This document shows, piece by piece, positions 46,981 to 47,478 of a stretch of 64,000 nt of DNA. A model generated the notes under the pieces. The model worked only from the letters and a program-made list of their open reading frames with translations. It was not told where the DNA came from and made no database searches. Position 1 is the stretch's first letter. Every line of letters begins with the position of its first letter. Position numbers and translations under genes: made by a program. Source of the DNA: Schmidtea nova. Its lineage: Eukaryota. The DNA lies in contig CM097884.1 in assembly GCA_044892505.1 (NCBI GenBank), forward strand, positions 125,302,001 to 125,366,000, read 5' to 3'.

Positions 46981-47073
46981 GCGGGTAAACAATTGGAAGG
47001 CGGAAGAATCTTGACAGATTACAACATACAAAAGGAATCTACTCTTCATCTTGTTCTTCGTTTAAGAGGCGGT
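46981..47073 (+). other. Ubiquitin fragment (residues 46-76) fused in frame to BEL Gag
   Basis: [31 protein letters not shown]; differs from canonical ubiquitin at D52G, T55I, S57T. Confidence 0.95.
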
Positions 47074-47478
47074 AATGATGAGGAAGAGTTTAAAAGTTTA
47101 TGGACCCGTCGGCGATCTAAAAAATGGAAAGTAACTCGAGCGCGTAACTTATTGTTGGCAGAAATGGTCGGGGAAATAAAGGACACACTGGTATTATATG
47201 AGAAAGAATTTGAGGATACATTGGACGAGTGGCTAAGACTTGTCGAGTTGTGTGACAAATTAAATAAGAAGGAGGAATTAGAATTAGTGGAAAAAGATAT
47301 CTGTGAGCTCGAAACAAAAAAAGAAGAGATAGATAAGATAATGCAAAAAAGAACAGAACAAAGTGTTGTGAGCGAGGGGTCAAAGACATCGGAATATGAG
47401 GCGCCAAGAGAAAAGAAGAGTTTAAATCGGTTGCAGAAAATAAAGATTCCGATTTTCGATGGGAAAATATGCCAGTAG
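47074..47478 (+). pseudogene. BEL/Pao Gag N-terminal part, truncated by an internal deletion
   Basis: Helical charged region ending [11 protein letters not shown] (LPKI.IP.FDG motif), then an abrupt junction to mid-protease sequence in another frame. Confidence 0.8.

Follow-up and report, generated by a model that had tools for sequence, protein, structure and literature searches.

A clade of BEL/Pao retrotransposons is organized as a single reading frame that leads from the 5' LTR through host mRNA fragments and a ubiquitin unit (UBL) ending in LxGG into Gag or Gag-Pol, and host deubiquitinases likely free Gag by cutting after GG. We assign this reading a probability of about 0.72. The analysis concerns a remnant copy in the window, a stretch of 64,000 nucleotides (G000:C3:125302001-125366000) of the AT-rich, 1.25-Gb genome of Schmidtea nova (G000).

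The initial annotation had described ubiquitin residues 46-76 ending at G76 and continuing in frame as NDEEEF into Gag, and the translation bears this out. The missing residues 1-45 were indeed lost in a 996-nt deletion, together with glutathione-reductase and mitochondrial-Hsp70 fragments and a degenerate upstream ubiquitin tail. The Pfam ubiquitin profile PF00240 matches the window fragment over profile positions 44-72 (E 3.7e-5), just below the cut-off because the sequence is a fragment. Downstream of the junction lie BEL/Pao Gag and a pol in which Pfam recognizes Peptidase_A17, RT, integrase, and DUF5641. The exact 26-nt type-1 junction is found at 149 sites in the genome and at none for the reversed control; the ubiquitin-Gag junction is therefore not due to chance. 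A further deletion of 1126 nt took the Gag core, the zinc knuckles, and the protease motif. The pol region is truncated at its 3' end, and the copy has no 3' LTR. Because the two deletions remove ubiquitin 1-45 and break gag, the window copy can make neither Gag nor folded ubiquitin and is dead and non-coding. Its features and those of its neighbours are collected in Table 1.

Table 1. Features of the two BEL/Pao copies and the tRNA piece, in window coordinates
Feature	Position	Strand	Basis or remark
5' LTR remnant of BEL/Pao copy	46173..46624	+	blastn to L066/L033; start hidden by N
Inverted 41-bp pol piece replacing deleted LTR middle	46339-46379		inverted repeat I11
Two partial 114-bp units of HECT-ligase-derived fragment in 5' LTR remnant			Pfam HECT match on longer variants
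AATAAA in 5' LTR remnant	46585-46590		hexamer position
Primer-binding site (PBS), read through in frame as GSRAWF	46629..46646	+	common to all six Gag lineages
Open frame, 389 codons, from inside LTR through PBS, leader, and ubiquitin remnant to Gag N-terminus	46309..47478	+	
Joint of in-frame 996-nt deletion, 2-nt microhomology	46980..46981	+	versus L066 and L031
Ubiquitin residues 46-76, ending LRLRGG	46981..47073	+	
Gag N-terminal helical region, type 1, begins NDEEEF	47074..47466	+	99% DNA identity to family copies
Joint of frameshifting 1126-nt deletion, 9-nt microhomology; stop 47476-47478	47458..47466	+	
Pol remainder: RT, Peptidase_A17/RNase H region, integrase, DUF5641 start	47467..50996	+	99.7% to L066
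Inverted LTR of second copy, same BEL/Pao family	51065..56955	-	split by Ty3/gypsy element
Calmodulin codons 1-25 in second-copy LTR	56514-56588		114-bp HECT-derived units in same LTR
3' end of host tRNA-Ile(AAT) copy with CCACCA and inverted anticodon arm	51010..51060	+	

The parental family encodes the fusion that had been supposed from this remnant, with complete ubiquitin joined to Gag directly after G76. A DNA search gave 1728 candidates, of which 40 were scored and 30 loci taken. The search for copies with complete ubiquitin, which the initial annotation had proposed, succeeded throughout, with all 76 residues before Gag in 29/29 of the other loci. Twenty of these, viewed at 10 kb, are short elements of ~5.1-6.6 kb without RT, and the LTR pairs are 97-100% identical where both were located. 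Among 20 loci from a search with the window pol, four are single frames of 2290-2370 codons in the order leader-UBL-Gag-PR-RT-IN; the ubiquitin start is visible in 17/20 and absent in 3/20. A second Gag type is 34-36% identical and has a UBL ending in LRLNGG. A search with PF05380 (675 candidates, 150 scored) supplied 20 loci picked across score classes without reference to ubiquitin. Four further Gag lineages came from this set; each has UBL-GG ahead of Gag and shares the PBS. A full UBL stands before Gag in one frame in 19/20 of them, the remaining one being frameshifted inside the UBL, and a single frame runs through the PBS in 18/20. Since the majority of loci were selected through their resemblance to intact queries and the copies are non-independent, these ratios are indicative.

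The PBS provides an unselected set. It has 1592 exact matches in the genome (control 0), corresponding to ~1,600 copies with a common PBS, and the genome holds 2605 first-look ubiquitin candidates. In the first 40 of the 1592 matches along C1, which include three pairs of tandem duplicates, Gag lies within 3.2 kb in 37/40. A UBL precedes Gag in 37/37, with a GG ending in 36/37. The UBL-Gag frame agrees with the PBS in 27/37 and is stop-free in 24/37; ten are out of frame and three more have stops, undated decay of a kind that is expected after insertion. Types 1 and 5 are common in this genome by this set.

The assignment to BEL/Pao is based on several features. The pol motif order is PR-RT-RH-IN with a YMDD RT in L063, L064, L066, and L067, as in BEL/Pao, and the outside protein P0125 shows Pao-type pol as well. 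Cys-His knuckles of Gag, deleted in the window copy, are in one frame with pol in four loci. The elements have TG...CA LTRs and a PBS, and a 5-bp target site duplication is seen in 11/13 copies, a count weakened by the many copies in microsatellites. In the flanks of L031-L050, most complete copies lie in (AAT)n and some in (AT)n or (GT)n microsatellites, an apparent target preference of the family. These non-autonomous copies have an open Gag with or without protease, and a long acidic low-complexity tail runs into the 3' LTR.

Relatives are also found outside this genome. A word-indexed Gag search returned one ENA cluster only, including P0125, a protein of 2000 aa in which ~160 residues precede a complete UBL (50% of host ubiquitin), followed by GG and Gag-Pol. 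A profile search over 1.84 billion representatives gave 9471 matches. Among the best 150 of these, six of the top seven are UBL-GG|Gag proteins, although GG-bearing matches were favoured because the search profile included the last 17 UBL positions. The UBL was called by a UBL profile in five and by eye from the first eight residues in P0132. All six come from ENA and JGI contigs. The other 144 have no visible UBL; many are N-terminally incomplete. P0133 and P0138, from Mya arenaria, are among the nearest relatives lacking a UBL, and their Gag starts at its own Met. A protein search with the ubiquitin region was uninformative, since the best 120 of its 1106 matches were all multi-ubiquitin proteins. 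For the tree, 119 of 158 rows covered the core and 63 were kept (8 seeds and the 55 best matches; P0130 had no coverage). At least 130 residues precede the conserved core in 27/48 of the non-UBL rows. In this quick, unrooted IQ-TREE tree with long branches, a branch with SH-aLRT 96 separates 13 UBL and 2 N-terminally truncated rows from the 48 others, and a single origin of the fusion is likely. The fusion is evidently an old, clade-wide trait rather than a single capture. One-off capture, which relatives opening Gag with their own ATG would indicate, is ruled out for the window copy by complete UBL-Gag across the closest, PF05380, unselected, and outside sets; within the family, the relatives do not show that sign.

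Six Gag lineages in this genome and seven outside proteins make 13 lineages with UBL-LxGG|Gag, which are 30-49% identical over the UBL and the Gag start. Their UBLs have diverged to 45-92% of host ubiquitin, and PF00240 scores above its 25.4-bit cut-off in 21/21 proteins scanned (51.5-101 bits). L73, G75, and G76 are invariant in 13/13, and structural positions are kept. Residue 74 can be R, K, N, C, or Y, and the divergent tails include LRLNGG, LRLCGG, MGLKGG, and LNLYGG. The binding patch drifts (I44 in 6/11, V70 in 3/13, H68 in 7/12), and R42, R72, and R74 vary among lineages. Types 4, 5, and 6 as well as P0125, P0129, and P0134 have Ile at the first UBL position, which therefore is not a start codon; Met1 is present in 53/58 type-1 copies. 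The residue after GG is Ser in six lineages, Asn in three (types 1, 3, and 5), Met in two, Gln in one (P0125), and Gly in one, and never Pro; two further variants in the unselected PBS set have Val and Gly.

The initial annotation had taken three substitutions in the window fragment as a sign of relaxed selection. The differences from host ubiquitin, at positions 52, 55, and 57, are real. However, two of them are family-wide (G52 in 54/57 and I55 in 57/57 distinct type-1 copies); T57 is private to the window copy, the family having Ala in 55 and Ser in 2. Among type-1 copies, ubiquitin has a dN/dS of 0.06-0.07 and Gag one of 0.08-0.13, from pairwise counts that are non-independent and for which length variants were dropped (35/60 loci kept for Hsp70). 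Shared variants in type-1 ubiquitin are 12 silent and 2 replacement, against 36 and 103 in the Hsp70 fragment of the leader (Fisher P 1.7e-5). By these measures, the UBL is under purifying selection and is constrained like Gag. Relaxed selection on ubiquitin is ruled out by the low dN/dS and the 12/2 shared variants. For one natural, intact copy, AlphaFold with a 12-row alignment predicts a ubiquitin fold over 1-71, an exposed low-confidence tail, and a first Gag helix from residue 78 (mean pLDDT 81, about 89 over 1-70).

The reading frame opens within the 5' LTR, with a median of 167 codons before the PBS, and an in-frame ATG is found there in 59/62 loci; several other ATGs precede this in-frame start within the LTR. 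From 80 loci examined, 18 without a matched PBS or tail were left out. Of the 62 counted, 57 have a distance between PBS and Gag that is divisible by 3, and 53 are stop-free. The mean number of stops is 1.2 in this frame versus 22.9 and 39.0 in the other frames. Leader lengths vary, and 24/29 distinct lengths are in frame. A polyadenylation-type hexamer lies 41-47 nt before the PBS in 29/31 located type-1/2 LTRs, and therefore the cargo is in U3 or R; from the conservation of the frame, we infer that the host fragments lie in R. A TATA-like box in the first 300 nt was found in only 5/31 type-1/2 LTRs with a located start. The PBS presumably resembles one for initiator-Met tRNA. The leaders of types 1, 2, 3, and 5 and of P0125 have a CYGPQ motif in common (window 46899-46923). 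We take its DNA to resemble the complement of the initiator-tRNA anticodon arm; instead of a protein motif, it may represent another segment for primer binding. By eye, an AT-rich intron-like stretch follows the PBS at 46717-46790.

The cargo in the LTR and leader comprises pieces recognized in Pfam or PDB as Hsp70, Hsp90, CCT, HECT, Vps35, E1 (ThiF), prenyltransferase, class II tRNA synthetase, glutathione reductase, and calmodulin 1-25 with its own start codon. In the old copy L127, an LTR piece reads, as we take it, like a fragment of S-adenosylmethionine decarboxylase. The Vps35 piece runs without interruption in five element LTRs, whereas the matching host exons (90-100%) are spread over 29 kb; spliced mRNA was therefore captured. 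The mitochondrial Hsp70 piece is 91-95% identical to the host gene L203. The dN/dS of the Hsp70 fragment is 1.1-1.2, and it has 0 shared stops where about 4 (3%) would be expected under a simple mutation model (P 0.014). The reductase piece gives about 1.06 by shared variants and 0.59 pairwise. Since the leader shows neutral drift with stop avoidance, it evidently has to remain translatable, although the encoded protein is of no importance.

Comparison with host polyubiquitin had been suggested as another check. Type-1 codons 1-34 match unit 2 of the host polyubiquitin gene L083 at 25/30 comparable codons (median over host units, 38%). For types 1, 2, and 6, the match is 75-83% of comparable codons (medians 38-44%). 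The UBLs of older decayed copies are more divergent. We infer that the UBL was at times partly refreshed from host polyubiquitin mRNA by template switch, which would be why the junction looks so exact. The Asn does not come from the terminal residue of host polyubiquitin, since each of the three host polyubiquitin genes located closes with GG-stop. L088 (G000:C2:446908530) is a single canonical ubiquitin gene ending GG-Met-stop-stop and is possibly a remnant of a two-unit gene.

According to PMC9703124, linear ubiquitin fusions are processed fast, and Pro after G76 blocks the cut. The architecture described above has the components of a pestivirus-type signal, namely complete ubiquitin, di-Gly, exact fusion, and no Pro after GG. 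RNA initiated in the LTR would carry the host fragments in R. Translation would begin at the LTR start codon, cross the PBS and the cargo, and yield UBL-Gag(-Pol). A host deubiquitinase would then cut after LxGG and free Gag from the leader, so that Gag would start at its first helix, whatever precedes, and the leader-UBL product would be degraded. Such a cleavage site would let the element tolerate any in-frame cargo. The earlier reading of ubiquitin as a Gag-processing signal accords with the conservation pattern of the UBL. The tails LRLNGG, LRLCGG, MGLKGG, and LNLYGG depart from LRLRGG; cleavage there may be slow or may fall to another protease. The cargo may be kept as a translation start, as piRNA camouflage, or as a tolerated template-switching accident of the kind in PMC5131818. 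At rather less than even odds, the LTR and leader are a translated, exchangeable cassette of host mRNA that is harmless through a host-cleaved ubiquitin linker and is periodically repaired from polyubiquitin mRNA. Such a cassette would possibly provide borrowed 5' ends and start codons, and camouflage against piRNA silencing.

The UBL could instead stay on Gag, or be cut slowly, and act as a binding or degradation tag in ESCRT recruitment or UFD-type turnover. Conservation extends beyond the tail to the fold, with R72 and R74 varying; PMC9703124 describes that cleavage-resistant ubiquitin on HIV-1 Gag restores release and that degradation by the UFD route can be driven by internal ubiquitin. 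The fold is, however, a requirement of deubiquitinases too, as is established from split-ubiquitin (PMC9703124), and this explains its conservation, while LxGG is invariant as the I44/V70/H68 patch drifts. We regard a tag as unlikely. The initial annotation had pointed to N-terminal Asn as a tertiary destabilising residue and to a possible control of Gag processing or half-life by the fusion. Setting the half-life of Gag through the Arg/N-degron pathway as the main purpose is more doubtful still. Asn follows GG in types 1, 3, and 5, of which 5 and 1 are common here, and Gln in P0125, but destabilising residues are thus found in 4/13 lineages and Ser, Met, or Gly in 9/13, with Val in a further variant. 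Ser, Met, Gly, and Val are not Arg/N-degron signals, and the distribution speaks against a central role for Asn.

Another conceivable arrangement is that splicing removes the leader, or that it is not translated, and that the UBL simply helps expression from the N-terminus, as ubiquitin does in its ribosomal precursors. The frequent Met1 of type 1 and the intron-like stretch after the PBS would fit this, but Ile occupies position 1 in six lineages, three of this genome and three from elsewhere, and the frame and its freedom from stops are kept over the PBS, the AT-rich stretch, and the many leader lengths, which makes it improbable, slightly more so than the degron. The lowest probability goes to the released leader-UBL as a weapon, a conjugatable or dominant-negative product disturbing host proteostasis. 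The Hsp70, Hsp90, CCT, HECT, and E1 fragments would suit such a role, as would the near-canonical tails of types 1 and 6, and conjugation of the type-1 leader-ubiquitin product may occur, being conceivable because type-1 ubiquitin is almost canonical. However, the cargo is neutral at the protein level by the Hsp70 and reductase ratios, it differs by lineage, it is of the sort that chance capture of abundant mRNAs would yield, and R42, R72, and R74 drift.

Release of Gag by host deubiquitinases, the preferred reading, can be placed among known systems. As in BEL/Pao (Belpaoviridae; PMC3118150), the elements have TG...CA LTRs, a 5-bp target duplication, and, in one frame, DUF1759-type Gag, zinc knuckles, protease, RT, Peptidase_A17, integrase, and DUF5641. 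Unlike in other BEL/Pao elements, UBL-GG replaces the Gag start, the frame begins inside the LTR and continues over the PBS, and host mRNA mosaics occupy the LTR and leader. The main text of this survey does not mention ubiquitin. No description of a BEL/Pao ubiquitin-Gag was found in the literature searched, which covered titles and abstract openings and left Repbase Reports mostly outside its scope. A Repbase note from 2008, whose title names a BEL family in Schmidtea mediterranea, could mention ubiquitin.

The clade is likely, by analogy, a variant of BEL/Pao elements working like the pestivirus processing signal. Cytopathic pestiviruses (BVDV Osloss, CP1, and CP Rit) carry host ubiquitin inside the polyprotein, behind other cellular sequence, with an exact G76 joint to the protein for release, and cellular hydrolases cut ubiquitin with upstream S27a residues from NS3 (PMC8310069). 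The pestivirus insertions are sporadic events in an RNA virus with cleavage shown, whereas here a fixed, old retrotransposon trait is seen, with cleavage predicted from sequence. In LTR-mediated retroposition (PMC5131818), spliced host mRNA is likewise joined to LTR elements, with several genes per chimera. In those cases, the retrocopies replace internal parts of defective elements, whereas here the cargo lies in the LTR and leader of elements with a full gag-pol frame and near-identical LTRs. The giant Ty3/gypsy elements Burro/GYPSM1 also have a polyprotein with a ubiquitin/SUMO-like motif and host-derived domains, but they belong to a different superfamily, the motif is internal after an N-terminal Gag, and no release role is stated in the part of PMC6431247 used. 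The cellular precursors (polyubiquitin, Ub-L40, and Ub-S27a; host L083-L092) share the linear fusion after G76, whereas the element ubiquitin is internal, diverged, and in several lineages without its own Met start.

If the preferred reading is true, this would be, to our knowledge, the first retrotransposon lineage relying on a host deubiquitinase for Gag maturation, and a stable natural counterpart to the sporadic pestivirus insertions. The ubiquitin linker would let host mRNA be captured in frame again and again while coding capacity is kept. Thousands of chaperone, ligase, and ubiquitin fragments dispersed in the genome affect gene annotation. Whether host-like sequence shields transposons from small-RNA silencing can be tested.

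The surroundings of the remnant hold further elements. The Ty3/gypsy element at 51184-56110, inserted into the second BEL LTR with a CGGGG target duplication, is young, with gag (401 aa) and pol (1120 aa) open and LTRs 99% identical. Decayed piggyBac-like transposase fragments (DDE_Tnp_1_7, Pfam) lie at 44333-45239. Rfam and ARAGORN scans of the window gave no match at threshold. The 3' 31-33 nt of tRNA-Ile(AAT) and CCACCA adjoin the end of the inverted LTR, where a PBS is expected, and the inverted anticodon arm, with G in place of the gene's wobble A, precedes them. By its sequence, the piece has the appearance of a mature, inosine-edited tRNA that served as a non-cognate primer and was reverse-transcribed. 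It is the 1 tRNA-Ile fragment in such an LTR context among 33 pattern matches. About 30 tRNA-Ile(AAT) genes stand in tandem with 336-bp spacing at G000:C2:431779553-431791334.
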